Source of the DNA: an uncultured Verrucomicrobiae bacterium
GTDB taxonomy: Bacteria; Verrucomicrobiota; Verrucomicrobiia; Chthoniobacterales; JAFAMB01
NCBI GenBank assembly: GCA_963762565.1
Contig: CAVXLD010000010.1
Location: forward strand, 64,001-128,000
Direction of reading: 5' to 3'
DNA length: 64,000 nt
In this document: positions 27,320 through 50,170 of the stretch, piece by piece
Numbering within the stretch: position 1 is the stretch's first letter
Layout of the letters: the number at the start of each line of letters is the position of its first letter
The notes under the pieces: generated by a model
The model's database searches: none
The model's input: the letters and a program-made list of their open reading frames with translations, nothing else
Told to the model about the DNA's origin: nothing
Translations under genes and position numbers: made by a program

Positions 27320-30228
27320 TTAAAACTTCTTCTCGATCTCCACGTAGAAGTAACGCTGAAAAGCGTTCGTGACCTGGGTATCAAATCCTTCCGTAGTGGC
27401 ATCAGAAAACGGAGGCCGGGTATCAAAAATATTGTTGATACCGAATACCAGCTTGGTGCCGGCCAACCAGGTACGAATACCACCAGTGCGAGCCTCCGGA
27501 ACCGGAGCGACCGCTTTTTCACCAACGACCCGTTTGCCTTCCTTGTTATACCCGGGTTTCGGTGTTTCGGGAGTCACTATCTCGGGCTTACCGAATTCAT
27601 AACTGATCTGCCAATCGAAGGTCAGCCAGTTGCCCACGACGTGGGTCTGAGTGAAACCGGTCTCTGCCACCAATTGAGGGATCGTCAACCCCTCCGATTG
27701 GAAATCGCTACCGTTACCGTCATGTTCGGAGTCGACGAAATTTAGGGTCAACCCGGTCTTGAACGTGTCTACGCCGAAGAGGGTTTTCGAATAAAAGATA
27801 CTCGCCACCATCTTGAAGTCGGGAGTGGTGAAGGAATCAGTAATATTGAAAACCGGAGCGTTCCGCACAAACTGCTCAGAGGAGTAATAGATCCAGGACG
27901 CATCAAGTTCGCCAGTCAGTTTCCCCCAGCTATACTCTTTGGTCGCGTAGCTCGCCCCAAAGTCGACCACATCAACCAAGAGGTTCCCTAGATTCTCTAA
28001 CGGATCATCAACGGTGGTAATCGTACCGCTCGAATCCCGGTGAACGAAGCCGGGAAATTCGGTGGGGTTATTGACCACGTCCTGCGCCGGAATTTGGCCA
28101 ATGAGACTGTTTTTTGTGATTTGGATCCAGTCGACGTAGGCGGTAAACCCGTTGGCCCATCCCCACCAGCTATGTTCCGGGTCTGCGCTTCCAGGGCTCC
28201 AGACCACCCCAGCATAATAGCTGTAACCGGTTTCCGGCTTTAGCTTAGGATTGCCTACGGTCACAATCCCTACTTCGGGTTGGGTCTGGGTAACAGGATC
28301 CACTACGAAAGTGAATGCTTCCAAAGGCCCGGTATATAGCTCTTCAACTGAGGGCGCCCGAAAGCTTTCGGAATAGCTAGCCCGGAAGGTCAGATCATCG
28401 AAAGGTTTGTAACGGATCGAGATCTTCGGTTTAGCGGCGTCGCCAAAGGAGCTATAGGAATCGTAACGTTCGGACAAGTCTACTTCTAGTAAGCGCATAC
28501 CTGGCCAGGACCACTGGCCACCAAAGATCGGGATGATGAGCTGTCCATAAGCGCTCTTGACGTAATCGTTACCGATCGCGTTTTGTTTAAACCCGCTCGC
28601 AGTGATGTTCCCGATAATGTAATTCGGATCGTTTCTTTCGAGGTAATTATCCGAGCGGTATTCCAAGCCGCCACCCACGGTAAAAGCCCCAGAAGGGAGA
28701 TAAAACAAATCGCCACCAGCACGAACTGTCCACTGAACCAAGTTCGTACTCGCTTCTGTGTTCGCGGTGTACCGGAGCGCCTTTATGAACTGCTGGTTAG
28801 GATTGAGGTTGGTATCAATGAATGGATTCAGAGAATTGACCGGTGAGACCCGGCAGCGTGCCGGACAAAGCCTCGTTCAAACGAGAATCCAAGGTAGCAT
28901 TATAGTTTGTCATGGTGGCATCGCTCTCGGAATAAAGAAAACTGGCATCCAAGAAGAAATTGTTCGGCAAGTTAATCAGCCGAATGCCCCCGACGTTGCG
29001 ATACGTGTTAATGACTGATTCGACTTTGCGTTGACCCAGGTTCAGTAAGCGACCAAACCAATCGAGCGGCTCACCAAAAGGATTGAAGGGGTTGTTCGTC
29101 GGTACAACGACCCCGTCGGTATTGGTGATCGGCGAGGCCGTGAAGTTGGCGAACTCGTCCTGACGCTGATAGAGGAAATCGTCGTAAAGCTGGACAAATT
29201 TAAACGGCTGGAAAGTCATTTTTTCGTAGGTGCCAATTCTTTGCTCCCGAGGAATGAGTTCGACGCCCGGAACGGTATTATAAAGGTTGAAGGCGACGTT
29301 AGTAACGAAGTTCGCTGGTGTAACAATCGGTCCAGCCGTCCCGGGAATCAGCGAGTAGAGATTGCCGGTGTTTACGCCGATGAAATTGCCCGCCGGAGTT
29401 CGAGCGGACTGAAGGTCGCTGTATTGGGGGCTCAACAGCGAATGGTTCACGTTACTGGAGTAGGGGCGATCGACTGCCAGAATTGGGCTGGTCTCGTCGT
29501 AATCGAAGGAGGCAACAATGCTCAGTTTCGAGTCATCGCTCCAAAGCTTCTGCGAAATCCCGGCGGTTAGCTGGACGTGGTCCTCTTCGTAGTCGCCGCG
29601 CTGGCTGATACCGTAATGATACCGGATATCAGCGCCGTTGTATTCGTCCTTCATCAGGACGTTGATGACGCCGGCGATAGCATCCGAACCATAAATCGAG
29701 CTTGCGCCGTCCTTCAGAATCTCGATGCGATCGACAGCTGATAGCGGGATCGTATTCAGGTCAACAAAGGGTTCGAAACCGTTTTGTGGGAAACGGCCCG
29801 TTCGTCAGGCGAAACCCGTCGATTAAGACCAGGGTAGAACTGAAACCAACCCCATAAAGGTTCGCAGTCGAGCCTCCAGGCGAAAAACTCGCACCGGCGT
29901 TGACCATCTGAGTGAACGCGCCAGTGTTCTGCGGCAACTTCTGGATCACATCGGAGACCGTTTGGTCCCCCTGGTTTTCGATGAATGTTTGATCGATCGT
30001 AGCAACAGGCTGCGTACCTTCGCCGACACGCGGAACGATGTAACCGGTCACTGTGACTTGTTGCAACTGGCCTTGGTTCTCAATGCCAGTACCGGCGAGC
30101 GTTGATTCCGGTGTCGGAGTGGGACTAGGAGCTTGCGCCCGAAGGTTGCTGGTTAAAGCAAGCGTTAGCAAAAACCCAGCTGTGGCGACAAATCCCACAA
30201 CTGAGTGGAAACGTTTCTTAATTATCAT
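27320..30228 (-). CDS. TonB-dependent receptor 1 (two single-base frameshifts at ~29790 and ~28833)
   Basis: Signal peptide, TonB box LQQVTVTG, plug DLNTIPLSAVDRIEILKDG, terminal EKKF; three ORF pieces join colinearly with paralogs. Confidence 0.9.
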
Positions 30229-30417
30229 TGTTTTGATCCTTGGATTCTCCGAGAAGCCATCTCTCGAGGTGGCCACCCGCGAAAATGGCGGACAGAGACA
30301 GACCAGACCTTCCGCCACGGCGACCCTGATTAGTCGCAACGGCTTCTGCTAGTGAAAGGACTGACTAATTCCCCTGCCAATCGTCTGCCGCCCGTTTTGC
30401 AAAAAAATCGTGATTTG

Positions 30418-30468
30418 GTCAAGACAATCATGAGCAATTTTTGAACGAATGATGCGGACTTCTGTCAC
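30418..30468 (-). promoter_or_regulatory. Conserved TBDR upstream motif, copy 1
   Basis: GTGACA-N16-GTTCAA-N17-CTTGAC on minus strand. Confidence 0.75.
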
Positions 30469-30514
30469 ACCGGTCTCGCAGAGCCGCGAAAAGGCACAAG
30501 AAACGCAAAATGGA

Positions 30515-30666
30515 CCGCGAATAAACGGTTAGCATCGCGCAGAGGGCGCAAAGGGCGCGGAGGTTTTAACCCGAAATTGAATGGGGTTAGATCCAGACTC
30601 GACTTCACCCCTTCCCTTTGCGTTCCTTGGCGTCCTTTGCGCGAGGATTTTGTTTGGTTGCGGCTC
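30515..30666. repeat. Direct repeat, left copy flanking TA module
   Basis: About 150 bp highly similar to 31558-31708; internally palindromic (gcgcaaagg/cctttgcgc). Confidence 0.88.
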
Positions 30667-31049: not shown

Positions 31050-31053
31050 GCCC

Positions 31054-31487
31054 ATGCCGATCTGCTGCGATACAAGCTTCCTATTTGCGACGTACGCTAA
31101 CGATGTTCATACAAGGAAAGCGTTGTCTGAACTTAACCAGATTAGCAGAGCCATTCACATCTCGGTTCTGAACCAATTTGAATTTGAGAACGCGCTCCGT
31201 TTAGCGGCGTTTCGTAAGCTCTTACCGACTGGCAGCGTACTAAGCATCCTGGCAGATTTCGAAGCCGACTTTGGATCTGGCAAACTGATTCTGGCGCCTG
31301 TTAACCTCGCATCCGCAATCGCGGAAGCGCGGCGTTTATCGGCGCGTTACACGCTGAGACTGGGGCATCGGGCCTTCGACAATTACACATTGGCGCCGCC
31401 CTTAGCCTTCGGGCCACGACGTTCCTGTCTTTTGACGAACGCCAACGAAAATTGGCCGGTGCCGAAGGACTATTGGTGAAACCTTGA
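31054..31487 (+). CDS. vapC: VapC/PIN-domain toxin (frameshift at ~31382)
   Basis: DTSFL, EFENAL and HRAFD; adding one base gives LHIGAAL..FLSFDERQRKLAGAEGL ending at 31487. Confidence 0.85.
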
Positions 31488-32056: not shown

Positions 32057-32145
32057 GTTTAATAGTTTTTCAGCAGTGCCTGCCGCGCCGAAGCTTGGCG
32101 AAGGCGGGCGCTGAAATCGGCCTCGCAAGCGAGGCGCGCTCCAGG

Positions 32146-35100
32146 TCAGAACTTCTTCTCGATCTGGCCGTAGAAGAAGCGTCGGATCGGATTCGCCGCC
32201 AAGGTATCGTAACCTTGATAACCGCTGTTGCCATCGATCGCGAGCGGCGGGCGGTATCAAAGAGGTTTTTGATACCGAAGGTAAACGTCGTGTTATCCAG
32301 CAAGCGCCGCCAAGTCCAACCATGACCTTCGGGCGCAGGCGCAACGGCTTTTTCACCGACAACCCTCTTACCTTCTTTGTCGTACCCGGGTTTAGGCGTT
32401 TCCGGCGTAACTTCGGCTGGCGGCCCGAATTCATAGGAAATCTGCCAGTCAACGGTCGTCCAGTCGCCGACAATATGGATGTACCCGGGCGGAGTCAGCC
32501 CGGCGCTAGCTGCGGGATGGTCCCATGCCCGTCATTTAAAGCATCAAGCTCCGAGCTTTCATAATTCAGAGTAAAACCAGTTCGGAACAGGTCGTTGCCG
32601 AACACGTGTTTAGAGTAGAAAATGCTGGCCACGATTTTCAAGTCAGGCCCCGGCCCCGCGTTGTTCCCAATTGGCCGCTGGTATCTGTGAGGTTCGTAAC
32701 CAGGAACTGCGCAAAACCATTGGCCTCTACCTCCAATTGTTTCAGGGAGAAGTTGTAGACGTAAGCGCCATTGGCATCCAACTCGAGTTTACCCCAACTG
32801 AATTCTGGGGTGACATAGCTTGCGCCAAACTGGATACCATCGGTTAGCAGCGTACCGAGGTTGGTAAAGTTGGCGAAGATTTCTGTGAGAGTGCCGTCCG
32901 GAGCGCGGACGACAGATCCCGGAAGATTAGCAGCAAGCACGGTGGTGGGAGAGGGCGTCGCGATAAGCTGGCGAAGCTCAACCTGATACCAGTCGAAGTA
33001 GGCAGTAAACCCTTTAGCCCAATGCCACCAGCTATCGTCCTTCGTAGATCCTGGGCTCCAAACTGCTTCGAGGTAGTAGCCATACGAATTCTCCGGTTGC
33101 AGTTTCGGGTTACCTCCCGTGGTCAATAGAATATTGGCGTTCACCCCCTTTACCGGATCGAAGACAGTCTGTTGGAACTGTGACTGGCCGGAGAACAGCT
33201 GGCCGAGTGACGGTACGATAAACCCTTCAGAATAGGTCGCCCGGAAGGTAAGATCATCGAAGGGCTTGTACAGGAGCGCGATCTTAGGCTTCGCCGAGCT
33301 GCCAAACTGACTATAATTGTCGAAGCGCTCATCCAAAATGACCTGTAGACTTCTCATTCCCGGCCAAGACCATTTGTCCCCGAAGATCGGGATTGATAGT
33401 TCGCCGTACATACTTTGAACCCAGCGCCGAGCGCTAAAGAGCTTACCGGCAAAGTCAGCCGAAGTAATATTGAAGTTCCGGCTATTTACATCATTCGACT
33501 GGATATAGGATTCACCACGATACTCCAATCCGCCCGCGGCAGTGAAGTCACCGCTGGGAAGAGCCCAGATTGTGCCCCCGGCTATCACACGGTACTGGAC
33601 GATATCGGTGCGATTGTCTTCGAGCTGGCTCGCCTTGAGGAACGGATAGAAGATCGCGTTCGGACTGTGGGAAACACTTTCATCGGTGAACGGGTTGAAG
33701 AAAACACCCGGAAGTTGGGGAAGAGTTCCATTAAGAGCTTCTTGCAGCTGCCGAGTTTTGACCGAGTTGTCGACCTCTTCGCTGACATCACTTTCACCAT
33801 AGGACGCAGCGGCATCGATATACCACGAATTCCACGGCAATTGAAGAGTAGCGCCGGCGACGTTGCGGAAAGTGCGGCCGATGGTGGTGGTATACCAGGG
33901 ACCGAATTCGCCCAAAGATTGCCCGATGAAGGGAGTTAAGTTTTCGTGCCAGGGGTTAAACGGATTGTTCGCCGGGATGATAATGGGGGCGCCATTAATG
34001 TTATCCCCGGAACTGAACCCTTGGTTGGGAGTGGTAGTCGTTTCCTCGTTACGCTGAATGATGAAATGGTCGTAAAGCTTGAGCCAATCGGTCGGATCAT
34101 AATCAACGTTAACCGTGCCGCCGTAACGCCTTTCGCGACCGGCCAATTGTGATTCGAATATACCGGCAGGAATCCGAGCCGAAGAAGGCGTACCGTTAAC
34201 GATGAAACTGTTCTGGGTAATACCGCCCACCCCGGTAGTACCCGGCTTCACGATGTAGATGTTACCAGTGGTTTCTCCGATATAGCTCCCATTACCCGGA
34301 AAGAAGGCGACCTGCTGATTTATGTAATTTGGTGAAAGTCGCGAGAACTCGCTATCATTCGAAAATCCACGGTCGCGGGCGTCGATCGGGGTCGATTCGT
34401 AATAATCGAACGTCGCTACGATGCTGACTTTACCGAAATTGCCTTCCGAGATGACCGCCCCCCGGTTTCTCAGTGATACCACCGGTCATCTGAAGGTGAT
34501 AGACCGCATTATCACCGCGCTGGCTCTCGCCGAAGTAATTGATGATATCGGCTCCATTGTAATCCTGCTTGGTGATGACGTTGACCACCCCGGCAATCGC
34601 GTCATCTCCGTAGGTGGCGCTGCCCCCATCTTTCAGAATTTCGATACGGTCGATGGCCGCCAGAGGGATGGAGTTTAAGTCAACGAAAGGGACCGTACCC
34701 GCATTGATCGATATGGCATAGTTAGGCATCCGGAATCCGTCGACGAGGACTAAGGTTGAGCCGACCGGCAAACTCTTCAGGCTGTAAGCCGATGAAGCAG
34801 GCGAATTGCTGTTGCCGGTAAAGGTCTGCGTATTTTGGGCGCTCAGACCTCCCGGGTACTGGTTCAAAACGTCGTTGATCGTCTGATACGCCTGCTTCTG
34901 GATGAAATCTTGATTGAGGGTTTCAACCGGCTGCGGACCTTCACCGACTCGCGGGATCAGGTAGCCGGTAACGGTCACCTGCTCCAACTGACCACCGGTG
35001 GGCGGAGGCGCCTGGGCCGGAGGGTTATTGGCACCGCCTGGAGCGGGCGGTGGAGGGGCATTCTGCGCTCGACCAGTTACGCCGAGCGTAAACAGAACCA

Positions 35101-35155
35101 ACAATTGAGCTGCGGTTACAATTGCAGCTACACGGGAACATCGTTTTTTAATCAT
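32146..35155 (-). CDS. TonB-dependent receptor 2 (four single-base frameshifts at ~34460, ~32674, ~32514, ~32252)
   Basis: TonB box LEQVTVTG, plug motif, terminal IEKKF; colinear with TBDR3; no in-frame stops seen in the reconstruction. Confidence 0.88.
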
Positions 35156-35329: not shown

Positions 35330-35379
35330 GTCAAGAAAATGTAAACAAATTTTGAACGAAATTGGGTCGAAGTTGTCAC
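35330..35379 (-). promoter_or_regulatory. Conserved TBDR upstream motif, copy 2
   Basis: GTGACA-N16-GTTCAA-N16-CTTGAC. Confidence 0.78.
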
Positions 35380-35518
35380 TGTCTCTCATTTTGAACGCAC
35401 CGGCTTGGCGAACATCCATTTGAGGGCGACTTAGCCTCCTTATTCGACCAGTCGGACGATGTTGCCAGAGAAAGGCAAACTAGCCGTTCGACCCGCTTAA
35501 AAACCTCTTAACCAGTAT

Positions 35519-35895: not shown

Positions 35896-35949
35896 ACTAG
35901 TTTTTCGGCGGGCGCCGAAATCGGCCTCGCAAGCGAGGCGCGCTCCAGG

Positions 35950-38900
35950 TCAGAACTTCTTCTCGATCTGGCCGTAGAAGAACCTTTGGACCGGGTTCGT
36001 AGCCAAGGTATCGTAACCTTGATAGGCGCCGTTGCCGACGAAAGCCAGCGGCGGATGGGCATCTGTGAGGTTCTTGATACCAAACGTGAAGGTCATATTG
36101 TCCAGCAATCGCCGCCAGGTCCAACCATGAGCTTCGGGTGCGGGCGCAATGGCCTTTTCGCCGATAACTCTCTTTCCTTCTTTGTCGTAGCCGGGTTTCG
36201 GCGTTTCCGGAGTGATCTCAACGGGTGGCCCGAATTCATAGGAGATCTGCCAATCGAGCGTAGTCCAGCTGCCGACCAGATGGACATAGCCGGGAAATGT
36301 CAGGGCTGCGTCGACTGCCGGAATAGTTCCGTGCCCGTCGTTGGTGTTGTCCAACTCCGAATTTGTAAAGTTCAGCGTAAATCCGGTTCGAAATAGGTCG
36401 GTGACGAACAGATGCTTTGAGTAGAATAGACTACCCACGATTCTGAAGTCGGGGCCGCTGCCAGGGGGACTTGCTGAAGCACCGCCGGCAGTATCGGTCA
36501 GGTTGGTAACCAGGAATTGCGCGGCACCGCTTGGTTCTACCTCCAACTGTTTCAGAGAATAGTTATAAATAAAGGATCCGTTGGCGTCGAATTCGAGTTT
36601 GCCCCAGTTGAATTCTTTAGTGACATAGCTTGCCCCAAACTCGAGCCCATCCACAAGCAGGGTGCCGAGGTTCGTGTAATTCGCGAAAATCCCTTGGAGT
36701 GAGCCATCCGCACCCCGGACGACGGAGCCCGGAAGATTGGCGGCGAGGACAGTGGCGGGGGCGGGCACCGAGATCACGTTACGAAGTTCGACTTGGTACC
36801 AGTCGACGTACGCGGTAAAACCCTTGGCCCAATGCCACCAGCTATTTTCGTCTTTCGATCCGGGTGTCCAGACTGCTTCAAGGTAATAGCCGTAAGAGTT
36901 CTCCGGCCTTAAGTTGGGGTTTCCTCCCTGAACTAGCACAACATTAGGCGCCTCAACGTTCTTGACCGGATCAAATACTGTGGTCAAGAACAGGGTCTGG
37001 GGCGCAAACAGCTGCCCTAGCGACGGAACGATATAACCTTCCGAATAGGTCGCCCGGAAGGTAATGTCATCGCACGGCTTATAGAGCACGGCAATTTTTG
37101 GCTTCGCCGCGCTGCCAAAATGGCTGTAATTGTCGAGGCGCTCATCCAAAATGACTTGCAGGCTCCTTAAGCCGGGCCAAGACCATCTGTCACCCAAAAG
37201 CGGGATGGATAGTTCGCCGTACATGCTCTGAACCCACCGAGCACTGCTGAGCAGCTTCCCAGGGAAGTCATCCGAGGTGATATTGAAATTGCGGCTATTT
37301 ACATCGTTCGATTGCACTAGCGATTCACTGCGGTACTCAAGTCCGCCCGCTACAGTTAGGTCGCCGCTTGGCAGAGACCAGAGCGTGCCGCCAGCGAGCA
37401 ATCGGTATTGGACGAGATCGGTGTGATTATCTTCGTACTGGTTCGTCCTGAGATACGGATAAAAGACCGCATTGGGATGTCCCAAGCTCTCATCGGTGAA
37501 CGGGTTAAAGAAAACCCCTGGAAGCTGAGGAAGCGTCCCGTTTAGAGCTTCCTGCAACTGTCGGAGCTTCACCGAGTTTGCTACATTTTCGCTGGAATCG
37601 CTTTCGCCGTACGAGGCGGCAGCGTCAATGTACCATGAATTCCAGGGAAGTTGGATGGTGGCGCCGCTGACGTTGCGAAAGGTCCGGATGATGGTGTCAG
37701 TGTACCACGGCCCAAATTCGGCCAGAGAAGTCCCCAAGAATGGCGCTAAGGGCACGTGCCAAGGATTAAACGGGTTATTCGCAGGGACGATTACAGGGCC
37801 GGGGGCAGGATCGAGAGCGCTGAACCCCTGGTTGGGCGTTGTGCTCGTTTCTTCGGTCCGCTGAATGATGAAATGATCGTAAAGCTTGAACCAGTCGGTC
37901 ACATCATAGTCAAGATTGACCGTCCCGCCGTAACGCCTTTCGCGGGCTAACAACTGGGTGATAAAATTACCTTCCGGGATAAAGACGTTGCCGGCAGTAC
38001 CGTTAACGATGAAATCGTTTTGGGTAATGTTCGGGCCGGTAGTCCCCGGCTTCACGATAAAAGTGGTGCCGGTGGGGATAGTAGGCGTGCTAGGCCCGAT
38101 ATACTGATAGCTCCCATTAGGAGGAGTGAAGGTAATCGCCGCATTTGGGTATTTGCCCGGCGAAAGTCTGGAAAAGAAGCTGTCATTGGACCACCAGCGA
38201 CTCGACGAGTCGATCGGAGACGAGTCGAAATAGTCGAATGTGGCAACCAGGCTAACTTTTCCGAAGTTTCCTTTCTCGGTAATACCTCCGGTCATGGAAA
38301 GGTGATAGATCTCATCATCACCGCGCTGGCTCTCGCCGAAGTAGTTGACGATATCAGCCCCATTGTAATCCTGTTTGGTAATAATGTTGACCACGCCTGC
38401 GATAGCATCGTCACCATAGGTAGCGCTGCCGCCGTCTTTTAGAATTTCGATACGATCGATCGACGCCAACGGGATTGAGTTGAGATCAACGAAGGGAATT
38501 GTTCCCCCGTTGATCGAAATCCCGGTTGTCGGAAAGCGAAATCCATCGATCAAGATCAGCGTGGAGCCAATGGGCAACGATTTCAGACTAAAAGCTGATG
38601 TAGCCGGGGAATTACTGTTCCCGGCAAAGGTCTGCGCGTTTTGCCCGCTGAGACCGCCCGGATAGGTGTTCAGGACGTCGTTAACCGTTTGATAGGCCTG
38701 CTTCTGGATGAAGTCTTGGTTCAAGGTCGCGACCGGCTGCGGTCCCTCGCCTACGCGCGGGATGAGGTAGCCGGTAACCGTGACGGTCTGAAGCTCGCCG
38801 CCACTAGTAGGGGCAGTGCCGCCTGGCGGGCCGCGGTCTGGCCTGTGGCCGGAGTTGGATTTTGGGGCGCTGTTTGCGCTCGGGCGGTGATTCCGAGCGT

Positions 38901-38966
38901 ACACAGCAACATCAATTGAGCTGCGGTTGCGATTGCAACCGGACTTGAGCTTGGGTAATTAGTCAT
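35950..38966 (-). CDS. TonB-dependent receptor 3 (one frameshift at ~38829, after the signal peptide)
   Basis: Signal peptide in ORF 38751-38966 joins the 984-aa ORF with one extra C; TonB box LQTVTVTG; terminal IEKKF. Confidence 0.92.
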
Positions 38967-39105: not shown

Positions 39106-39157
39106 GTCAAGAAAATGCGACGGCAAATTTTGAACAAATTTCTGGCGGAGTTGTCAC
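39106..39157 (-). promoter_or_regulatory. Conserved TBDR upstream motif, copy 3
   Basis: GTGACA-N16-GTTCAA-N18-CTTGAC. Confidence 0.78.
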
Positions 39158-39295
39158 CACGCGATCTTCGCCGTGTGCGGGATAGGATCGCCTGCAAAGA
39201 GAGGGCCGTCCATGAATCACAGAATCCGATCACTCAAACCGTGGCTAGAGCAAGCGTCGTCGCTCAACCCTTTTCAAACAACCTCTGACCGGACC

Positions 39296-39561: not shown

Positions 39562-39621
39562 AAATAGTTTTTCGGCGTTGCCTGCCGCGCCGTAGCTTGG
39601 CGAAGGCGGGCGCCGAAAAAC

Positions 39622-42600
39622 TTAGAACTTCTTATCAACCGAGAACCAGAAATAGCGCTGGATGAAGTTAGCACCGCCAGCGTTATCAAAGTTCGAGAGG
39701 ACGTTATCCACAGCCAGAGGCGCCGGCGTGTCGAAGATGTTATTGATGCCGAAGGTGATCGTGGTGTTGGCCAGGAGATTGCGCCAACCCCAGCGAGATC
39801 CTTCGATGGGTGGTGCGATCGCCTTCTCGCCAATGATTCTCTTCCCTTCCTTATTGTAGCCAGGTTTTGGTGTTTCAGGCGTAATTTCGGTTGGTTGGCC
39901 GAACTTGTAAGAGATCTGCCAATCCAGAGTAGTCCAGCTGCCGATCAGGTGAACATAATTGGGGGCGTTCAAAGTGACGTTCGGGTTAGTGCCGTTAGCG
40001 GAGTTTGTAAAGTCTTGCTCCGAACCAACGTAATGGAGAGTGAAGCCGGTTCTGAATGTATCAATCCCAAACAGCGTCTTGGAATAGAAGGCGGTGGCCT
40101 GCATTTTCAGGTCCGGCGCGGCGCCGTTGGCCGTATCGGTCAAGTTGAAGACTCGAAAAAAGAGCGTGCCGTTCGGATTAACCCCCTGCACGGTTTGCGC
40201 GCTGACCCAGTAGAGGTACGACGCATCGAATTCCAGGTCGATTTTACCCCAGCTGTATTCCTTGCTGTCGTAGGTAAAGCCCGTCTCAATTCCTTCGCTA
40301 CGACTATCACCCAGGTTCAGGTAGGTGTTAGTAACCTCAACAGGTACTCCGCCTGGGCCCAAAACAATGCTGTTACCAGGAGGGAGCGGAACGCCAGCCG
40401 AAACGAGATCAAACACATTGGCGGCGGTTAAAGTCCCAAAGACTTGGTGTTGATCGAGCTGGAACCAGTTTATGTAAGCCGAAAACCCATTCGCCCATCC
40501 CCACCAGCTATGCTCCGGATCCTGAGACCCGGGATTCCAAACCGCTCCCAGGTAATACATATAGGCGTTCTCTGGCTTGAGTCTCGGGTTGCCCAAGGTC
40601 TCGGCAAGAACGGTAGCTGTCTGTCCATTCTGAAGGGTAATAGTGGTCTCAGCCGGTATTCCCGCGGAGGTAAACAGCTGTGGCAGTGACGGTGCTACGA
40701 AGGATTCCGAATAAGAAGCCCGGAGGGTCAGATCGTTGATCGGTTTCCACGCCAGCGAGAATTTCGGTTTCGCAGCACTACCGAAATCACTGTAATAATC
40801 CTGCCGCTCAGACATGACGAACTCGAGAGACCGCATTCCTGGAAAGGACCATTGACCACCAAGGATCGGGATATCAGCCTGTCCGAAGATGCTCCAAATG
40901 TTACGACGCGCGTTGACCAGCCTGCCGAGCGGGAACTGAATCGCAGTCAGATTACCATCGTAACTATTAGGATCATCGTTCTGAATGTAATCTTCACTGC
41001 GGTACTCTAAACCGCCGGCAACAGTGATATCGCCCGCTGGAGTCGACCATATTGTGCCGCCCGCGGTGACATGGAACTGCATGATGTCGCTCCTGATATT
41101 CTCAAAGATGCTGCCAACGAGGTTTTTATTACCATAAAAAGCGCTATTGGGTCCGGCAACCGTTTCATCGGCAAACGGGTTGAAGAATTGGCCGACGTTG
41201 CCGGGCAGAGTGCCATTCATGGCTTCCTGCATACCATTGAAGAAAAACATGTTCTTCATAGTCTCAGTGCCGTCAGATTCGCCGTAGAGCCAATTACCAT
41301 CGATTGCCCAGCCATGCGGCAGTTGAATCGTAGCCCCGGCAACCTCGCGGAATGTGGTGATGGTGGTGTCGGTCTTCAGCACGTTGAACTCGTTCAGAGC
41401 AAGTTCAAACACCTGCAGGGGTTCATGGAACGGATTGAATGGATTGTTCGCAGGAACAGTAATTCCGCTGTTAAACGGAGGCGGATAGATACCTTGGTTA
41501 GGACCATAGGTACTGGATTCCTCCGTTCGCGAGATGAGGAAGCTATCGTAGAGCTTTAACCACTCGGTTGGCTGGTAATCAATTTTAACTAAGCCGCCGA
41601 GGCGATCTTCCCGCGGGTACACTTGCAGGCCATTTATGGTGAATGACGAAGGATTCTGAGTTGTAAAGTTATTGAGGATAAAGTCATTAGGTGTCGGATT
41701 TACACCGTTAAAGCCCTGTTTTGTAATATATAGGTTCCCACTGTTTTGACCGATAAAAACTCCAGTCGGGAACGGGAATACCGCGGCGGCCGGATATTTA
41801 GGTGATAGAAGTGAATAATTCAGAAAGGTATCGCGCCGGTCGACTGCGTTCACCGGACTCTGCGTGTAGTAATCGAACGCTGCGACGACGTCGATCTTTG
41901 GAATAAAGGCCTCGCCAACTTGCGGCGCCGGCGGCGTCTTGCCATCTCCTACCGGTTCACCGCCACTGCCACCCCCTCGACCAAATTTCTCCTCGAAGCC
42001 GCCGGTGAATTCACCGTGATAAACTTCGTAATCACCTCGCTGGCTGATGCCGTAGTAATTGTAGATATCAGCCCCGGTATAATTGCTTTTGGTGATGAAG
42101 TTCACGACCCCAGCCACCGCATCCGTTCCGTACACGGCGCTACCGCCGTCCTGCAGGATCTGGACGCTGTCAATTGCACCTATCGGAATGCTATTGATGT
42201 CGACATAGTTAAACGCACCGGCAACCGATACCTGCGGAAACGGATAGGAAGGCATCCGCAGCCCATCCACCAGAACGAGGGTGTCGTTTGGAGGCAACCC
42301 TTTGAGCGCGATTGATGAGCCACCGGGAGAGAAACCGAAGCCAGTGGTTACCCCTGGGTTAAAGTTGCCCGTGGCTGCGGGAAGGTTTTGTAGCACGTCC
42401 TGGACGTTCTGATAGCCCGTCTTCTGAAAATACGCTTGATCGTAAGTGGTAACGGGGTTTGGACCTTCTCCGACACGCGGGATCAGGTAACCTGTAACGA
42501 TGACCTGTTGGAGCTCACCGCTGGTGCTTGCACCCGCGTTGGGTGCGGCGGCACGGCGGGGTTCTCACCCGGAGCTGGACTGGGCGCCGCTGTCTGCGCC

Positions 42601-42692
42601 TGAGCGCCAACGGTGAGCCCGAACGTAAGGACGAATTGGATTGCGGTCGCAAATGCGATTCTGGAGAGATATCGATTTAGATTAATAATCAT
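39622..42692 (-). CDS. TonB-dependent receptor 4 (one frameshift at ~42547, after the signal peptide)
   Basis: Signal peptide in ORF 42483-42809; adding one base gives SGELQQVIVTGYLIPRVGEGP continuing into the 924-aa ORF; terminal VDKKF. Confidence 0.92.
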
Positions 42693-42847
42693 CGTGAACC
42701 TCAATTTCATCTTTGCGCCGCCTTTTCTGGCTTCGCCAAGATTCCTGCTGAAATTGCTTAATCCGGCCACCGACCAGCATTTGACACTTTTTCGGCGGCC
42801 AGAATCCACTCAGTTTGCACCCACTTTTGCGGGAAAACCTAGGAGCA

Positions 42848-42897
42848 GTCAAGGAAATGTAAGGAAATTTTGAACAAATTTCCTGCAAACTTGTCAC
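42848..42897 (-). promoter_or_regulatory. Conserved TBDR upstream motif, copy 4
   Basis: GTGACA-N16-GTTCAA-N16-CTTGAC. Confidence 0.78.
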
Positions 42898-43023
42898 CGC
42901 GATTCTCGGTGTTTGGCGGATCGATCTTCTCCCCTGGAAAAAGCGGAGCTCTTCTGCGCATCAAAGCACCCGGAAAGTAAAGGGGGGAGTGCTCTTCGGC
43001 TTTTAAAAGCCGTTAATTCGACG

Positions 43024-43076: not shown

Positions 43077-43510
43077 AAGCGAGCGCCGAAGGCAGAGGAC
43101 AGGGACGAGTAACGCAGGAATGCCGGCGTCCAAGGGTGAGAAACAAACATGACGTGGGAGGGCGCGCGTCCCCGCGCGCTGCGAACGGGTCTATAATCTT
43201 GGGTGTAGCCTCGCGCGGGACTTGTTTGTCCCGGGTTTCGAAAACAAAACGGCCGCTGCCGGACGCGGACGCGATCCCTCCCGCCGAAGGGCATTGGTCG
43301 ATAAGAGGACCGGGACGAAGCCTGGCGAGAGGACTAGTGGGCGGCGATGATGCCCCCCACATCACGACATAGAGAGCAGGCTTGCGTATGTTATGTCTCT
43401 CGATTTCCCTTGTTCACCACGGCCTCGCAAGCGAGGCAGCGCTCCATGGGTGGCGCCGTAGGCTTGACGAAGGCGGGCGCCGAAATCGGCCTCGCAAGCG
43501 AGGCGCGCCC

Positions 43511-46498
43511 CTAGAACTTCTTATCAATCGAGACCCAGAAATAGCGCTGGATATTGTTCGCACCGCTGCCGGGGTCGTAGTTAGTGAGAACGGCGTCCAC
43601 CGCGAATGGCGCAGCGGTATCGAAGATGTTGTTGATGCCGAAAGTAAAGGTCGTATTCGCCAGCAGATTGCGCCAGCCCCAACGAGATCCTTCGGGAGCA
43701 GGTGCAACTGCTTTTTCACCTACGATTCGCTTGCCTTCTTTATCATAGCCGGGCTTGGGCGTTTGAGGGGTAATTTCGGTTGGTTGTCCGAATTTATAGG
43801 AGATTTGCCAGTCGAGCGTCGTCCAACTACCGATCAAATGAACATAGTTCGGAAAATTCAAAGTGGCATTCGGGTTCGTATTATTGGCGCTGTTGGTGAA
43901 ATCCAGTTCGGAACCGATGTAGTGAAGAGTTAGCCCGGTTTTAACTGTATCGATCCCGAAGACGGTCTTGGAATAGAACGCGCTGGCCTGGAACTTCACG
44001 TCAGGCGAAGACGCACCCTGGAGCGCGGTGTCCGTCAGGTTGAAAACTCGGAAAAAAGGAGTCCCGTTGGCATTTGCGCCCTGTATGGTTTGCTGAGTCA
44101 GCCAGTAGAGATAGGTACCGTCAAATTGCAGATCGATCTTGCCCCAGTTGTATTCTTTGGAGTTGTAAGTGAAGCCGAACTCAAGGCCTTCGCTGCGGCC
44201 GTTCCCGAGATTCGCTACGGCGGTGGTAACCTCCAGAATCTGGCCGGTGGTTGCGTCCCGCGTAACGAAGTTTCCAGCCGGCGCAGACGCACCCAGATCG
44301 GCAACCTCTTGCGCGCTCAACGTACCGAATTGGTCGTGTTGATCGATTTGGAACCAGTTGATGTAGGCAGAGAACCCGTTAGCCCAGCCCCACCAGCTAT
44401 GTTCCGGATCACTAGATCCGGGAGACCAGACCCCTCCGACATAGTAAGTGTAAGCGTTCTCTGCCTTCAGATGGGGGTTACCGGTTGTCTGATTCAGTAC
44501 GGTTATCTGGCCGAGTCCAGGGTTCTTAGGGTCAACCAGGGTGGTCTCCGCGATCTGCGGCGCCGTGAAGAGTGCGGTTAAGCTCGGAGCAACGAACGAC
44601 TCCGAATAGGTGCCGCGAATGCTGAAATCGTTAAAAGGTTTGTACAGCAGCGCGAATTTGGGTTTAGCGGCGCTGCCGAAGTCGCTATAGTAATCTTGGC
44701 GCTCCGATATGACCAGTTCAAGGGACCGCATCCCGGGCCAAGACCAGGCGCCGCCGACGATCGGAATGTCTACCTCACCGAAGATACTCCAGATGTATCG
44801 CCGAGCGTTGGTTAAGGTACCAATCGGATTTTGAGGCGCAGTGAGGTTCCCGACTTTACCATAGGGATCCTCGTTCGCGATGTAATCTTCACTGCGATAT
44901 TCCCAGCCGCCCGCGACGGTGAGGGGACCCGATGGCAACTCCCACAGCGTGCCACCCGCGGTGGTATGGAACTGCATAATATCCGTCCGGATATTTTCGA
45001 AGATACTTCCGATGAGTAGCTTGTTTCCGTAGAAAGCGGCATTGGGACCGGCTACAGATTCATCCGCAAACGGATTGAAGAATTGCCCGACGTTACCGGG
45101 AAGGGTGCCATTTAACGCGTTTTGCAGTCCGGTGAAACGGAAGAAATTTTCCTGGGTCTCGGTTCCGTCGCTTTCACCGTAGAGAAAGTTGGAATCGATA
45201 TACCAACCATGCGGTAACTGGATGGTTGCGCCAACCACCTCACGGAACGTGGTGACGATCGTTTGGGTTCTCAGGACGCCGAATTCATTAAACGCCTGGG
45301 GACCGACCTGCAGGGGTACACCGAACGGATTGTACGGGTTGTCAGCCGGAACGATCAGGAAGGCATTCCCGGAGAATCCGCCACCATAAGTGCCTTGGTT
45401 TGGGCCGTACGTAGCCAGCTCCTCCGTACGATTAACGAGGAAGCTATCGTAGAGCTTTAACCAGGTAGTCGGCTCGTACTCGACTTTGACTAAACCGCCT
45501 AGCCGCTGTTCCCGCGGAACGACCTGCAGACCTTGGATGCTGAAAAATTGTTGCGGAGCGTTACTGTTGAAGTCGGCGGGCGTGGGGTTCACCCCGTTGA
45601 AGCCCAAATTGGGCTGGAGAAAGGTTCCCGCAGGAATGCCAGTCTTCGTAGGAGCTAACGTTGTAAACTCGCCAGTTAGACCCGGAAAAACGGCGTTATT
45701 CGGGTATTTGAAACTGTAACGAGAGTAATTTAACGCCTCCATTGAGCGATCAATCGCTTCGATCGGACTCTGGTCATAGTAATCGAATACTGCGAGCACG
45801 CTGAGCTTGGAGTCCTGACCTAATTTCTGCGTGATCCCACCGGTAAACTCACCGTGATAGACCTCATAGTCATCTCGTTGGCTGATCCCGTAATAATTGT
45901 AAATATCCGCCCCGTTATACCCTTCTTTGGTGATAAAGTTGACGACGCCGGCCACCGCGTCGGTTCCGTAGGTGGCGCTACCGCCATCATTCAAAATATC
46001 GACGCGGTCGATCGCACCAATCGGAATGCTGTTGATGTCGGTGAAAGTGAATGGACCGCTAGCGGGAGTGAACTGGAAGAACGGATATGCCGGCATGCGG
46101 AGTCCATCGACCAGAACCAGAGTATCTTGGGGCAGCAGCCCCTTGAGTGCAACCGACGCGCCCCCAGGCTGGAATCCGAATCCGGGTATGAAACCCGGGT
46201 TCACACTACCGGTAGCGGCGGGAAGCTGCTGTAGGACATCCGCAACATCTTGGTTTCCCGTTTTTGTGATGTAGGTCTGGTCATAGCTTGTTACTGGCTG
46301 CGGACCATCTCCAACGTGCGGGAGGAGGTAACCGGTAACGGTGACTTGCTGGAGCTCGTTTCCGGTGTTTTGGCTTTCGCCGGCGCCGGTGGCCGGTGAG
46401 GCGGTCTGGGCGTGGGTAGTAAACCGCAGCCCGAACAGGATTACGAACTGAACGACTGTCGCAAATGCGACGGTACGGAGATGTGGATATTTAATCAT
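43511..46498 (-). CDS. TonB-dependent receptor 5 (intact)
   Basis: 995 aa; signal peptide, ELQQVTVTG, DINSIPIGAIDRVDILNDGG..YGTDAVAGVVN, terminal F. Confidence 0.96.
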   Translation of the reverse strand: MIKYPHLRTVAFATVVQFVILFGLRFTTHAQTASPATGAGESQNTGNELQQVTVTGYLLPHVGDGPQPVTSYDQTYITKTGNQDVADVLQQLPAATGSVNPGFIPGFGFQPGGASVALKGLLPQDTLVLVDGLRMPAYPFFQFTPASGPFTFTDINSIPIGAIDRVDILNDGGSATYGTDAVAGVVNFITKEGYNGADIYNYYGISQRDDYEVYHGEFTGGITQKLGQDSKLSVLAVFDYYDQSPIEAIDRSMEALNYSRYSFKYPNNAVFPGLTGEFTTLAPTKTGIPAGTFLQPNLGFNGVNPTPADFNSNAPQQFFSIQGLQVVPREQRLGGLVKVEYEPTTWLKLYDSFLVNRTEELATYGPNQGTYGGGFSGNAFLIVPADNPYNPFGVPLQVGPQAFNEFGVLRTQTIVTTFREVVGATIQLPHGWYIDSNFLYGESDGTETQENFFRFTGLQNALNGTLPGNVGQFFNPFADESVAGPNAAFYGNKLLIGSIFENIRTDIMQFHTTAGGTLWELPSGPLTVAGGWEYRSEDYIANEDPYGKVGNLTAPQNPIGTLTNARRYIWSIFGEVDIPIVGGAWSWPGMRSLELVISERQDYYSDFGSAAKPKFALLYKPFNDFSIRGTYSESFVAPSLTALFTAPQIAETTLVDPKNPGLGQITVLNQTTGNPHLKAENAYTYYVGGVWSPGSSDPEHSWWGWANGFSAYINWFQIDQHDQFGTLSAQEVADLGASAPAGNFVTRDATTGQILEVTTAVANLGNGRSEGLEFGFTYNSKEYNWGKIDLQFDGTYLYWLTQQTIQGANANGTPFFRVFNLTDTALQGASSPDVKFQASAFYSKTVFGIDTVKTGLTLHYIGSELDFTNSANNTNPNATLNFPNYVHLIGSWTTLDWQISYKFGQPTEITPQTPKPGYDKEGKRIVGEKAVAPAPEGSRWGWRNLLANTTFTFGINNIFDTAAPFAVDAVLTNYDPGSGANNIQRYFWVSIDKKF

Positions 46499-46865: not shown

Positions 46866-46917
46866 GTCAAGCAGCATCCGAGTAAAATATTGAACGAAGT
46901 TGCCTTGGCGTTGTCGA
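46866..46917 (-). promoter_or_regulatory. Conserved TBDR upstream motif, copy 5 (divergent)
   Basis: TCGACA-N16-GTTCAA-N18-CTTGAC. Confidence 0.7.
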
Positions 46918-47090
46918 GAGGACGGTTTCCTTTCTTAAGTCTTGCAAATCCTCGGCCCAATCAACGCGGTACAGAGCGTAGATTAAGGAAGAGCGGGCGG
47001 CACGAAACACCTTGGTCACCAGGGCCTCATCCCCTCGGCCGCGGGAAGACAGCCCTCCACGGTGGCCACCCTTTCGGTCTTGTCTCCACC

Positions 47091-47123
47091 AAAAAAAAAG
47101 CCGGGCGGAAACCCGGCTTTTTT
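47091..47123 (-). terminator. Bidirectional Rho-independent terminator after TBDR6
   Basis: A9-gccggg-cggaaa-cccggc-T6. Confidence 0.88.
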
Positions 47124-47206
47124 CCATAGTTTTTAAGCGGCGTCTGCCGCGCCGAACGCTCGGCGAAGGCGGGCGCTTAAATCGGCCTCGCAAGCGAGGC
47201 GCGCTC

Positions 47207-50170
47207 CTAGAACTTCTTATCAACCGAAACCCAGAAGTAACGCTGGATATTGTTCACACCGCTCTGGCCATCAAAGTTCGAGAGAACGCTATCCACCGCA
47301 AATGGTGCCGGCGTATCGAAGATGTTGTTGATGCCGAAGGTAATAGTTGTATTCGCCAGCAGATTTCGCCAACCCCAGCGTGATCCTTCTGGAGCAGGCG
47401 CGATGGCTTTCTCACCCACGATCCGTTTTCCTTCTTTATCATAACCCGGCTTGGGAGTTTGCGGCGTTAGTTCAGTCGGTTGCCCGAACTTATAGGAGAT
47501 TTGCCAATCCAGAGTCGTCCAGCTCCCGACGAGATGAACGTAGTTAGGAAAATCCAAGGTGGCATTCGGGTTGGTTCCGTTGGCGCTGTTTCTGAAATCT
47601 TGCTCAGAACCAATGTAATGGAGAGTCAGCCCGGTTCTAACCGTGTCGATGCCGAAGAGGGTCTTGGAATAGAAGGCGCTTGTCAGGAATTTCAAGTCCG
47701 GACCGGTTCCGTCGGCAGTATCTGTTAAGTTAAAATCCCGGAAAAAGATTGTCCCGTTTGGATTTACGCCTTGCAAAGTTTGCTGGGTAAGCCAGTACAG
47801 ATAGGAACCGTCGAACTGCAAATCGATCTTGCCCCAGCTGTATTCTTTCGATGTATAGGTGAAGCCGAACTCGATCCCTTCGCTGCGGCCGTTCCCGAGG
47901 TTCGCGACAGCCGAGGTAACCTCCAAAATCTGTCCGGTTACGGTGCTCCGGGTCACGAAGTTACCGGGCGGAGCAGCTCCTCCGAGATCGACGACTTCCT
48001 GCGGAGTCAAAGTACCGAACTGGTTGTGCTGGTCGATTTGGAACCAGTTGATGTACGCAGAGAATCCATTGGCCCAGCCCCACCAGCTATGCTCGGGATC
48101 ACTAGAACCTGGAGACCACACCGCTCCGGCATAATAGGTGTACGCATTCTCCGGTTTCAGATGGGTGTTGCCTGAAGTCAGAGAGAGTACGGTCTCTTGC
48201 CCGGCTGCAGGATTCTTGGGGTCAACTACACCGGTCTCGGCAATCTGCGGTGTCGTGAAGAGTTGGGTCAGACTCGGAGCGACGAACGACTCAGAATAGG
48301 TGGCCCGAAGGGTCAAATCGTTGATCGGCTTGTACAATATAGCGAATTTCGGTTTGGCGGCGCTCCCGAAATCGCTGTAGTAATCTTGCCGCTCCGACAT
48401 AGTCACCTCGAGCGACCGGACGCCAGGCCAAGACCAGGCGCCGCCCAGAATCGGGATGTCCACTTCACCGAAGATGCTCCAGATGTAACGGCGGGCATTG
48501 GTCAGGTCACCCGGGGGGAATTGCGGCGCCGTAAGGTTGCCTGATTTACTATAAGGATCATCATTGGCGATATAATCTTCACTACGATATTCGAAGCCTC
48601 CCGCGACCTGGATCGCACCGGAGGGTAACTCCCACAGCGTGCCTCCAGCAACGGTATGAAACTGCATAATATCGGTCCGGATATCTTCCCAGATATTGCC
48701 GATCAGCAGCTTATTGCCGTAGAAGGCGCTGTTAGGTCCAGCCACTGATTCATCCGCAAACGGGTTGAAGAATTGCCCAACGTTTCCTGGAAGGGTGCCA
48801 TTTAACGCTTGTTGTAGACCGGTGAAGCGGAAGAAATTGTACGTCGTCTCAGTTCCGTCGCTCTCTCCATAGAGGAAATTGGAATCGATATACCAGCCAT
48901 GCGGTAGCTGGATGGTGGCGCCAACTACTTCACGGAAAGTGGTGACGGTCGTATCGTTCTTCAGGACACCGAATTCATTGAATGCCTGCGGGCCAACCTG
49001 TAAAGCTTCACCGAACGGATTGTAAGGGTTATTAGCTGGAACGACGAGGAAGGCATTCCCCCCGAATCCACCACCATACGTACCTTGATTGGGGCCATAC
49101 GTACTGATTTCTTCGGTTCGGTTAACCAGGAAGCTGTCATACAACTTCAACCAGCTGGTCGGGTTGTACTCAATCTTGACCAAGCCGCCTAACCGTTGTT
49201 CCCGCGGATAGACCTGCAGGCCTTGAATACTGAATTGTTGTTCCGGATTACCATTGATGATGAAGTCCGACGGTGCGGGGTTCACGCCGTTGAATCCCGG
49301 CTTCGGCTGGTAGAAGTTTCCAGTTTGCAACCCAACGAATTGGCCCGTTAAACCCGGAAAGATAGGCGCGTCCGGGTATTTGGGGCTGTAGCGCGAGTAA
49401 TTCAACGCCTCCATTGAGCGATCGATGGCCTCTACTGGACTCTGATCATAGTAATCGAACACTGCCAGGACGCTGATATTAGAGTCCTGACCTAGCTTCT
49501 GCGTCAGGCCGCTGGTAAACTCACCGTGATACACCTCATAATCGTCTCGCTGGCTAATCCCGAAATAATTGTAAACATCGGCGCCGTTGTACCCGTCTTT
49601 GGTGATGAAGTTAACGACTCCAGCCACCGCATCGGTTCCGTAGGTGGCGCTACCTCCGTCGTTCAAAATGTCGACGCGATCGACCGCTCCCAAGGGAATG
49701 CTGTTGATGTCGGTAAAAGTGAATGGACCGCTATTGGTGGCGAACTGGAAAAACGGGTACACCGGCATGCGGAGCCCATCGACCAGCACCAAAGTATCAC
49801 TGGGCAGCAAGCCTTTCAGGGCAATGGATGCCCCACCGGGCTGAAATCCGAATCCGGGCACCACACCCGGATTCACGTTACCGGTCGCGGCAGGAAGCTG
49901 CTGCAATACGTCAGCAATCTGTTGGTTCCCCAGTTTTGAGATGAAAGCCTGGTCATAGGTTGTCACCGGCTGGGGGCCCTCGCCAACGTGCGGAATCAGG
50001 TAACCGGTAACCGTGACTTGCTGAAGCTCGCCACCGCTGGATGAAGTTTCGTTGGCAGCCGAACTTGGTGATGCCGTCTGAGCGTGGGTGGTACTCCCGA
50101 TCCCAAGCAAGATTACGAATTGAATGGTGGTCGCAGCAGCGACCCTTCGCAGATATCGATTTCTCATCAT
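47207..50170 (-). CDS. TonB-dependent receptor 6 (intact)
   Basis: 987 aa; same motifs; closest paralog of TBDR5. Confidence 0.96.
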   Translation of the reverse strand: MMRNRYLRRVAAATTIQFVILLGIGSTTHAQTASPSSAANETSSSGGELQQVTVTGYLIPHVGEGPQPVTTYDQAFISKLGNQQIADVLQQLPAATGNVNPGVVPGFGFQPGGASIALKGLLPSDTLVLVDGLRMPVYPFFQFATNSGPFTFTDINSIPLGAVDRVDILNDGGSATYGTDAVAGVVNFITKDGYNGADVYNYFGISQRDDYEVYHGEFTSGLTQKLGQDSNISVLAVFDYYDQSPVEAIDRSMEALNYSRYSPKYPDAPIFPGLTGQFVGLQTGNFYQPKPGFNGVNPAPSDFIINGNPEQQFSIQGLQVYPREQRLGGLVKIEYNPTSWLKLYDSFLVNRTEEISTYGPNQGTYGGGFGGNAFLVVPANNPYNPFGEALQVGPQAFNEFGVLKNDTTVTTFREVVGATIQLPHGWYIDSNFLYGESDGTETTYNFFRFTGLQQALNGTLPGNVGQFFNPFADESVAGPNSAFYGNKLLIGNIWEDIRTDIMQFHTVAGGTLWELPSGAIQVAGGFEYRSEDYIANDDPYSKSGNLTAPQFPPGDLTNARRYIWSIFGEVDIPILGGAWSWPGVRSLEVTMSERQDYYSDFGSAAKPKFAILYKPINDLTLRATYSESFVAPSLTQLFTTPQIAETGVVDPKNPAAGQETVLSLTSGNTHLKPENAYTYYAGAVWSPGSSDPEHSWWGWANGFSAYINWFQIDQHNQFGTLTPQEVVDLGGAAPPGNFVTRSTVTGQILEVTSAVANLGNGRSEGIEFGFTYTSKEYSWGKIDLQFDGSYLYWLTQQTLQGVNPNGTIFFRDFNLTDTADGTGPDLKFLTSAFYSKTLFGIDTVRTGLTLHYIGSEQDFRNSANGTNPNATLDFPNYVHLVGSWTTLDWQISYKFGQPTELTPQTPKPGYDKEGKRIVGEKAIAPAPEGSRWGWRNLLANTTITFGINNIFDTPAPFAVDSVLSNFDGQSGVNNIQRYFWVSVDKKF

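Follow-up and report, generated by a model that had tools for sequence, protein, structure and literature searches.

A clade-specific, lysine-tipped loop in a predicted periplasmic turn of TonB-dependent receptors from Chthoniobacterales

The 64,000-nucleotide stretch analyzed here, positions 64001-128000 of contig C10 (hereafter the window), derives from a 6.1 Mb genome in 15 contigs that is 93.7% complete and that the database names of near-identical proteins place in the order Chthoniobacterales of the Verrucomicrobia. It encodes six TonB-dependent receptors, R1 to R6, each of which carries a proline- and lysine-rich insert in a late turn of its barrel. We take as established that this insert is a clade-specific loop under selection, predicted to be flexible and to face the periplasm, with a tip composed of lysine, an acidic residue, a small residue, and a second lysine. 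The most likely reading of its function, which we propose tentatively from residue conservation, structure modeling, and analogy, is that the tip lysine K912 (R1 numbering) may link the receptor to peptidoglycan.

A preliminary description, made from the sequence alone, had placed the insert in a late turn of all six receptors. A degenerate back-translation of PKPGY(D/N)KEGK confirmed this, with six minus-strand matches at 0 mismatches each (27533-27562, 32367-32396, 36172-36201, 39841-39870, 43730-43759, and 47426-47455) and 0 matches in 100 shuffles. Each receptor holds one match in the C-terminal part of its frame, between ...DWQISY(E/K)F and ...TFGI(N/K)N, and the copies differ in third codon positions. 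R1, a TonB-dependent receptor of 987 amino acids in an unbroken frame (47207-50170, minus strand), was recognized from its open reading frame, the plug and barrel Pfam domains, an AlphaFold model, and Foldseek. Its insert comprises residues G896-N940 (47351-47485, minus strand), as delimited by sequence, low predicted local distance difference test (pLDDT) values, and conservation, and the tip motif K912-E913-G914-K915 lies at 47426-47437 on the same strand. Alignment to the Pfam profile of the barrel, PF00593, breaks off at profile position 424 of 436, which in R1 corresponds to residue 896, the first residue of the insert. The remaining inserts, all on the minus strand, are located at 43655-43789 in R2, 39766-39900 in R3, 36097-36231 in R4, and 27458-27592 in R6, as identified by sequence and motif pattern, and at 32292-32426 in R5, where the motif pattern and a three-frame reading show the insert itself to be unbroken. 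The whole genome contains 10 insert-bearing receptors, namely the six in the window, two on contig C1, and one each on C3 and C12. Its 14 plug matches, two of which fall within R6, are read as 13 receptors. In the three insert-less receptors (690-764 amino acids, contig C7), the corresponding turn is of ordinary length, about 4-10 residues. A Trp/Leu piece, W..L..T, precedes the next strand and had been counted as part of the insert; since it is also present in relatives without the insert, it belongs to the ancestral short turn, and the true addition is about 35 residues.

Each receptor gene is predicted to encode an ordinary plug-and-barrel TonB-dependent transporter. The plug domain PF07715 exceeded the cut-off in R1-R4 (E 6.5e-16 to 2.1e-14), and the barrel domain PF00593 did so in all five frames scanned, four of which also contained the plug. 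The AlphaFold2 model of R1, built from 85 aligned homologs, showed a mean pLDDT of 82.5 and a predicted template modeling score (pTM) of 0.82. Foldseek matched this model to PfeA, PirA, FepA, Cir, and BtuB at E 1e-31 to 1e-25 with a probability of 1.00, and with HasR, FecA, and SusC included the solved transporters extend from 1e-31 to 1e-22. All copies end in KKF, with a terminal Phe, and a (Q)VTVTGY stretch just after the signal peptide may be the TonB box, as judged from the consensus of that element. At the residue level, a profile search of solved chains aligned only the plug and one mid-barrel stretch, with no alignment of the C-terminal residues. No NCBIfam model exceeded the cut-off for the receptors, and a search of the ESM Atlas with residues 896-940 gave no usable match by features, its structural rows all being below a TM score of 0.5.

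The last three strands of the R1 model span residues 884-894, 941-948, and 978-986, and the 29 residues 949-977 form the last extracellular loop by strand order. In this transporter family, the side of the barrel on which the C-terminus lies is the periplasmic one. From strand order and fold topology we therefore infer that residues 895-940 face the periplasm, in line with the preliminary description. DSSP assigned more than 22 strand segments to the model, since the loops hold hairpins; because each additional hairpin contributes its strands pairwise, counting from the plug and counting from the C-terminal end give the same parity. Within the insert, residues 901-930 show pLDDT values of 49, 46, and 48 per block, and the segment is predicted to be a flexible or disordered loop. 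A short helix at residues 934-938 (pLDDT about 75) precedes strand 21, and isolated bridge residues (910 and 916) point, at low confidence, to a hairpin around D911-K915. On geometric grounds alone, a stretch of about 34 free residues fixed at its two ends could extend up to roughly 5 nm into the periplasm.

A second conserved Trp-rich stretch, PGSSDPEHSWWGWANGF, is found at R1 residues 686-702 (window about 48065-48115), between two model strands. Its residues D691, P692, H694, S695, W696, W697, and W699 are kept in at least 90% of the 85 homologs, and a 60-nucleotide repeat family (starting at 28118, 32980, 36790, 40456, 44345, and 48035) is tied to this stretch in the receptors. By strand parity it may also be periplasmic, a placement that the loop hairpins make uncertain.

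In the close family of 85 sequences, the insert residues G896, P903, P906, G909, Y910, G919, E920, A922, and P925 are invariant, and K912, E913, G914, K915, and K921 are kept in at least 90%. For a wider comparison, 66 rows were assembled from 60 fetched places, a non-random choice made to cover four families, and nine copies from this genome (R5 left out), minus L062, L068, and L104, which had been translated in the wrong frame. The insert length varies from 33 to 51 residues across these rows. K912 is retained in 64 of the 66 (one Arg, one Val), an acidic residue at 913 in 61, K915 in 53, Y910 in 49, G914 in 47, P906 in 36, and P903 in 18. K912 is thereby on par with the framework residues Y893 (66/66), G946 (66/66), and D888 (65/66). 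That Arg almost never replaces K912 fits a need for the amine itself. The preliminary description had raised the conservation of the lysines in orthologs as a check on its proposal; K912 is conserved in the copies from four families, and the lysine of TPKPGY (K907) is not. The arms are rich in Thr-Pro and have a linker-like overall composition of Pro, Thr, Glu, Lys, and Ala; across the four families these arms drift, and the tip between them has the form (G-Y)-x-K-[D/E]-[G/S/A]-K.

Because an aligner can pull lysines together, the motif was also counted without alignment. Of the 66 inserts, 54 contain K[DE][GSA]K, compared with 1.0 on average and 5 at most over 500 shuffles, and 45 contain [YFW].K[DE], compared with 2.1 in shuffles. 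K[DE] is absent from five inserts, and the motif is doubled in some inserts of families f6 and f14. Counted from the start of the insert, the first K[DE] has a median position of 16 residues (0.36 of the insert length), which is close to the midpoint of the free part if the helix at the interface is disregarded.

Selection was examined with codon alignments of eight paralogs (28 pairs; R5 and R6 excluded for their frame breaks) and Nei-Gojobori proportions. Synonymous differences are saturated both within the insert (0.61-0.96) and outside it (0.57-0.82). Non-synonymous differences are lower in the insert than in the rest in 26 of the 28 pairs, equal in R4/C12, and higher in C3/C12, and among closer paralogs they are up to five times lower. 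The earlier statement that the insert is better conserved than most of the protein is thus upheld. At the DNA level, a 265-nucleotide repeat family spanning the insert shows 61-78% identity among its six copies. With synonymous sites saturated and DNA identity at this level, the conservation of the insert reflects protein-level, functional selection and is not caused by gene conversion, a concern that the preliminary description had raised. Together with its occurrence in four families and the near fixation of K912, this selection supports the earlier view of the insert as a dedicated module.

The last 117 residues of R1 were searched against 1.84 billion protein representatives (E <= 0.001), yielding 129 matches. 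Among these, the 32 tails that were printed are all receptor C-termini, and 31 carry the insert at the same place; the exception, P0147, is a truncated fragment in which an earlier part of the barrel is joined to the motif. For some inserts, identity to R1 is as low as 35-42%. Two multi-stretch matches, P0158 and P0227, are repeat proteins and were regarded as spurious. A C-terminus profile was then run on 120 other genomes of the order, a sampling in which very different inserts may be missed. It matched 12 of 12 genomes in family f1, 6 of 7 in f5, 12 of 12 in f6, and 11 of 11 in f14 (41 of 42 overall), and 0 of 78 in the other 12 families of the order. In a phylum sample of 301 genomes, 30 matched, and the matches from beyond the order belong to three families within the same class. 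The 35 receptor tails that were read, five of them over the last 20 residues only, represent 29 of 30 kept loci (the remaining one being R2 of this genome) and six more. Three of the 35 lie within the order and have inserts. The tails outside the order that were printed across the turn have about 4-14 residues there and often still end in W..L..T. The lineage restriction that the preliminary description proposed to test is therefore borne out among the genomes sampled, where the insert is confined to four families of one order, Chthoniobacterales by database names. In these receptors, the turn that links strands 20 and 21 now comprises 33-51 residues, up from about 8-14.

Braun's lipoprotein (Lpp) is joined to peptidoglycan through a lysine by an L,D-transpeptidase. 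By analogy, K912, placed at the tip of a flexible loop, would hang into the periplasm between two linker-like arms, and one of the many L,D-transpeptidases of the cell would join its side-chain amine to meso-diaminopimelate. The elements of such a system are present to the extent that a segment of predicted disorder, on the side inferred to be periplasmic, carries a conserved amine donor, and that the genome contains 13 matches to the YkuD (L,D-transpeptidase) domain. Lpp gave 0 matches in this 93.7% complete genome under a search that matched the E. coli control genome. The combination of no detectable Lpp and many L,D-transpeptidases corresponds to the profile described for bacteria that tether beta-barrels covalently, according to PMC11841132. 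That source reports covalent tethering of Coxiella BbpA and BbpB, the Legionella major outer membrane proteins, and the Legionella FadL-family channel Lpg1810, which is attached through a lysine of its tail KTPAPPEKDIT, and its authors consider that tethering may aid nutrient uptake. These proteins resemble the present receptors in having a lysine within a Pro-rich, flexible periplasmic segment and in occurring in genomes without detectable Lpp, and Lpg1810 is likewise a nutrient channel. They differ in that no TonB-dependent receptor is among the cases named here, and the bond proposed for the present receptors is a prediction from sequence and model.

Several observations weigh against a tether. 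The acceptor lysines of the tethered proteins considered here lie in terminal tails, whereas K912 lies in an internal loop. The residues fully invariant in the close family are Pro, Gly, Tyr, Glu, and Ala, not Lys, a pattern that fits a recognition or conformation motif equally well. Genomes across the order have 5-17 YkuD matches each, also in the 12 families that lack the insert. All occurrences of the motif that were found (10 in this genome and every full-length match inspected) lie at the C-terminal end of TonB-dependent receptors; if the motif were a tether of general use in the envelope, other abundant outer membrane proteins should carry it too. The neighboring Fur-family and Suf genes suggest an iron context for the locus and iron-regulated receptors, which would be unusual candidates for a structural tether. 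Finally, in a figure of the FhuA-TonB complex (PMC11658791), turns 8 and 9, which adjoin the turn of the insert, are labeled beside the bound TonB, an arrangement that would favor contact with the Ton motor.

Two candidate links between YkuD proteins and the insert were discarded. The number of YkuD matches rises with genome size and does not separate genomes that bear the insert from those that do not. A lipoprotein with a YkuD domain and a Pro-rich linker is encoded two genes downstream of an insert-bearing receptor on contig C1, next to a second lipoprotein of no known family (contig C1 of this genome, G000, 401246-403593; 3244-4245 and 4707-5576 in locus L030). Its close orthologs in three relatives lie on short contigs without a listed receptor match, and this neighborhood was regarded as chance, with a probability roughly estimated at about 6% for five loci.

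A second reading, the main rival, which we consider possible but rather improbable, is that the loop docks or guides the Ton motor by binding the TonB C-terminal domain, its Pro-rich rod, or ExbD beside the exit of the TonB box, thereby pre-positioning the motor or stabilizing the complex under load. The restriction of the motif to TonB-dependent receptors agrees with such a role, as does its character as a conserved yet disordered stretch, which is typical of linear binding motifs. The genes for TonB, ExbD, and ExbB lie directly upstream of the receptors. In addition, an amphipathic helix of TonB cross-links to barrel turns of FepA in vivo (10.1101/2021.12.08.471779), and TonB-family proteins contact periplasmic turns of HasR and FepA (PMC11633176; 10.1101/2021.12.08.471779). 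In contrast, the residues shared across families comprise only Lys, an acidic residue, a small residue, and Lys, without a hydrophobic anchor, and the three short receptors of the same genome lack the loop. Co-folding of R1 residues 894-941 with TonB residues 60-222, using alignments, gave a score of 0.00 in a run without controls, which weighs neither for nor against docking.

The TonB protein of the locus (222 amino acids, 51011-51679, minus strand, directly upstream of R1, Pfam TonB_C) was considered as a possible counterpart of the loop. Its linker keeps TPPPLDKPPEFE, which is invariant in an alignment of 58 homologs; at residues about 79-94, T-P-P-P-L and P-E-F-E are invariant within TPPPLDKPPEFE(I/V)P, and a Gly-rich stretch precedes the C-terminal domain. 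This linker motif lies a few kilobases from insert-bearing receptors in at least 7 other f1 genomes, which would suit a docking function. As a DNA pattern, however, PPLDKPPEFE is found in 10 of 12 other f1 genomes and in none of the 108 genomes from the remaining 15 families. It is thus limited to f1, this genome included, and was not found in the 30 genomes examined of f5, f6, and f14, families that also have the insert (0/30). Since the insert occurs in four families, the TonB motif and the insert do not co-vary, and the narrower TonB motif was rejected as a feature co-distributed with the insert.

The loop is unlikely to serve a different partner or to be a modification site, such as a target of a TPR protein, of O-glycosylation on its Thr/Pro arms, of the barrel-assembly machinery or a chaperone, or of a periplasmic binding protein that takes the substrate. 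Conservation despite disorder and arms rich in Thr-Pro are compatible with this idea, and in 3 of the 6 loci read from f14 and f6, large TPR proteins lie at the flanks of insert-bearing receptors. TPR proteins are, on the other hand, common in the phylum Verrucomicrobiota. Moreover, L127 and L128 are syntenic and hence not independent, and conservation of the Thr/Pro arms does not extend across families. In this genome, none of the five receptor loci, of which the four outside the window were read as open reading frames without a family scan, was noted to have a TPR gene beside it, and the nearest TPR gene in the window lies at 59537-60088. The TPR proteins beside insert-bearing receptors elsewhere are encoded at 8201-10237 in L127, at 3404-7261 and 10877-14757 in L128, and at 13463-16081 in L132; one TPR protein in L127, 4 kb away, also matches the glycosyltransferase-like PMT_2. 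These neighbors are a lead toward a TPR partner or toward glycosylation of the arms.

A passive spacer, in the sense of a soluble, disordered bristle that clears the mouth of the barrel or spaces the envelope layers without a specific partner, appears quite improbable. Low predicted order, variable length (33-51 residues), and drifting, linker-like arms would suit it; the tip does not, given K[DE][GSA]K in 54 of 66 inserts versus about 1, K912 in 64 of 66, and lower non-synonymous differences in 26 of 28 pairs. That the insert is extracellular, or that its similarity stems from recent gene conversion, is scarcely credible: the copies are tandem and the side is assigned by strand order, but strand parity from both ends of a fold matching solved 22-strand transporters puts the loop on the side of the C-terminus, presumably the periplasm, and the insert is shared by paralogs on four contigs and by four families at synonymous differences of 0.61-0.96 and DNA identities of 61-78%.

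On the minus strand, the genes of the locus are arranged in the order of a Fur-family gene, SufC/SufB/SufD, ExbB, ExbD, TonB, and the receptors R1 to R6. The Fur-family regulator (57349-58005, minus strand), identified by Pfam, is upstream of SufC/SufB/SufD (53648-57394). ExbB (52255-53010, PF01618) and ExbD (51792-52292, PF02472), both on the minus strand, precede TonB. A Pfam scan of the window detected no sigma/anti-sigma pair beside the receptors, and an Rfam scan of the window matched zero families. No RNA data set was listed for this stretch. A 141-residue frame with a weak match to the PIN domain (E 2e-4, below the cut-off) lies between R5 and R6 on the plus strand, at 31054-31479.

All six receptor genes contain the motif, and in this respect the preliminary description stands; frames unbroken from the signal peptide to the terminal Phe are limited to R1 and R2, and R3, R4, R5, and R6 are broken outside the insert. 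R2 (43511-46498, minus strand; open reading frame and Pfam) encodes 995 amino acids. R3 (39622-42809, minus strand), delineated from open reading frames, consists of a signal-peptide piece at 42483-42809 and a body at 39622-42396 in another frame. R4 (35950-38904, minus strand; open reading frame and Pfam) has a receptor body of 984 amino acids, with a signal-peptide-like stretch upstream in another frame. R5 (32146-35155, minus strand), reconstructed by three-frame reading, has at least four frame breaks in this assembly. R6 (27320-30339, minus strand; open reading frames and Pfam), the most divergent receptor, is split into three frame pieces at 27320-28741, 28815-29654, and 29761-30339. Contigs from four other public metagenome runs show insertions or deletions at the R5 break sites 32253, 32513, and 32673. 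At 34457-34465 in R5, 60 letters replace 7 in contigs of other runs, position 34457 being a run of six C. In R3, contigs of other public runs differ by the loss of 2 bases, at 42553 or 42555. Being 93-100% alike, the contigs represent related strains, which read on through the break places of R3 and R5. The breaks in R3-R6 are either long-read assembly errors or strain-specific decay.

Two kinds of repeated element accompany the receptor genes. A 37-nucleotide AT-rich element, AAATTTTGAACAAATTT...GTTGTCAC, recurs at 35336-35383, 39125-39161, 42865-42901, 46885-46921, and 50307-50343, which places it 5' of R5, R4, R3, R2, and R1, respectively, at 56 to about 390 nucleotides from the start codons. 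It may be a promoter or operator of each receptor gene. A GC-rich inverted-repeat element, ...GGCCTCGCAAGCGAGGC..., lies directly 3' of the stop codons of R5, R4, R2, and R1 (32093-32142, 35897-35946, 43462-43511, and 47158-47207) and is unmatched in Rfam. A related piece (repeat family D19) follows R3 at 39567-39612 and, as 46 nucleotides at 50955-51000, the TonB gene. The GC-rich element looks like a terminator or a repetitive extragenic palindromic (REP)-like sequence.

The receptors share with the canonical transporters PfeA/FepA, PirA, Cir, BtuB, FhuA, and HasR the plug and barrel Pfam domains, the fold (E 1e-31 to 1e-23), the terminal Phe, and TonB-ExbBD genes next door; at the sequence level, only the plug and a single stretch in mid-barrel align with solved chains. 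The difference lies in the turn, which has 8 residues in loop 10 of HasR (numbered as by its authors), possibly the corresponding turn, and about 4-14 in relatives of the same class, compared with 33-51 and a conserved tip here. The FecA/FpvA/HasR-type transducers also carry an extra periplasmic module; theirs is a folded N-terminal signaling domain that talks to an anti-sigma factor, whereas the present one is a loop near the C-terminus that is predicted to be disordered, in a window without a sigma/anti-sigma pair. For HasR, 4 of the 8 residues of periplasmic loop 10 are said to suffice (PMC11633176). The TonB-contacting turns of HasR and FepA resemble the insert as a periplasmic turn that serves as a working surface toward the motor (PMC11633176; 10.1101/2021.12.08.471779); they are short and lack K[DE]GK, and contact of the insert with TonB would be a prediction. 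An enlarged periplasmic turn in TonB-dependent receptors is not described in the titles and abstracts of the literature searched, which is no proof that no such description exists. Judged on that basis, these proteins are transporters of the ordinary kind that carry a periplasmic module not reported so far.

Periplasmic turns of TonB-dependent transporters have usually been treated as minimal connectors, and their contact with TonB has been shown only recently. Throughout the clade described here, one such turn holds about 35-50 residues under selection, with a single lysine nearly fixed. The clade offers a natural experiment on how the outer membrane is fastened in diderms without Braun's lipoprotein and on how the Ton motor finds and holds its receptors, and the motif, being short, detectable without alignment, and clade-specific, is directly testable. 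The wider proposition that the receptors of this Lpp-less soil clade act as covalent tethers that link outer membrane and peptidoglycan through an internal-loop lysine is doubtful at present. If true, an internal loop would for the first time be the acceptor of an L,D-transpeptidase, a TonB-dependent transporter would for the first time be seen anchored in the wall, and the arrangement would couple nutrient uptake, a wall-anchored Ton motor, and envelope mechanics in one protein.

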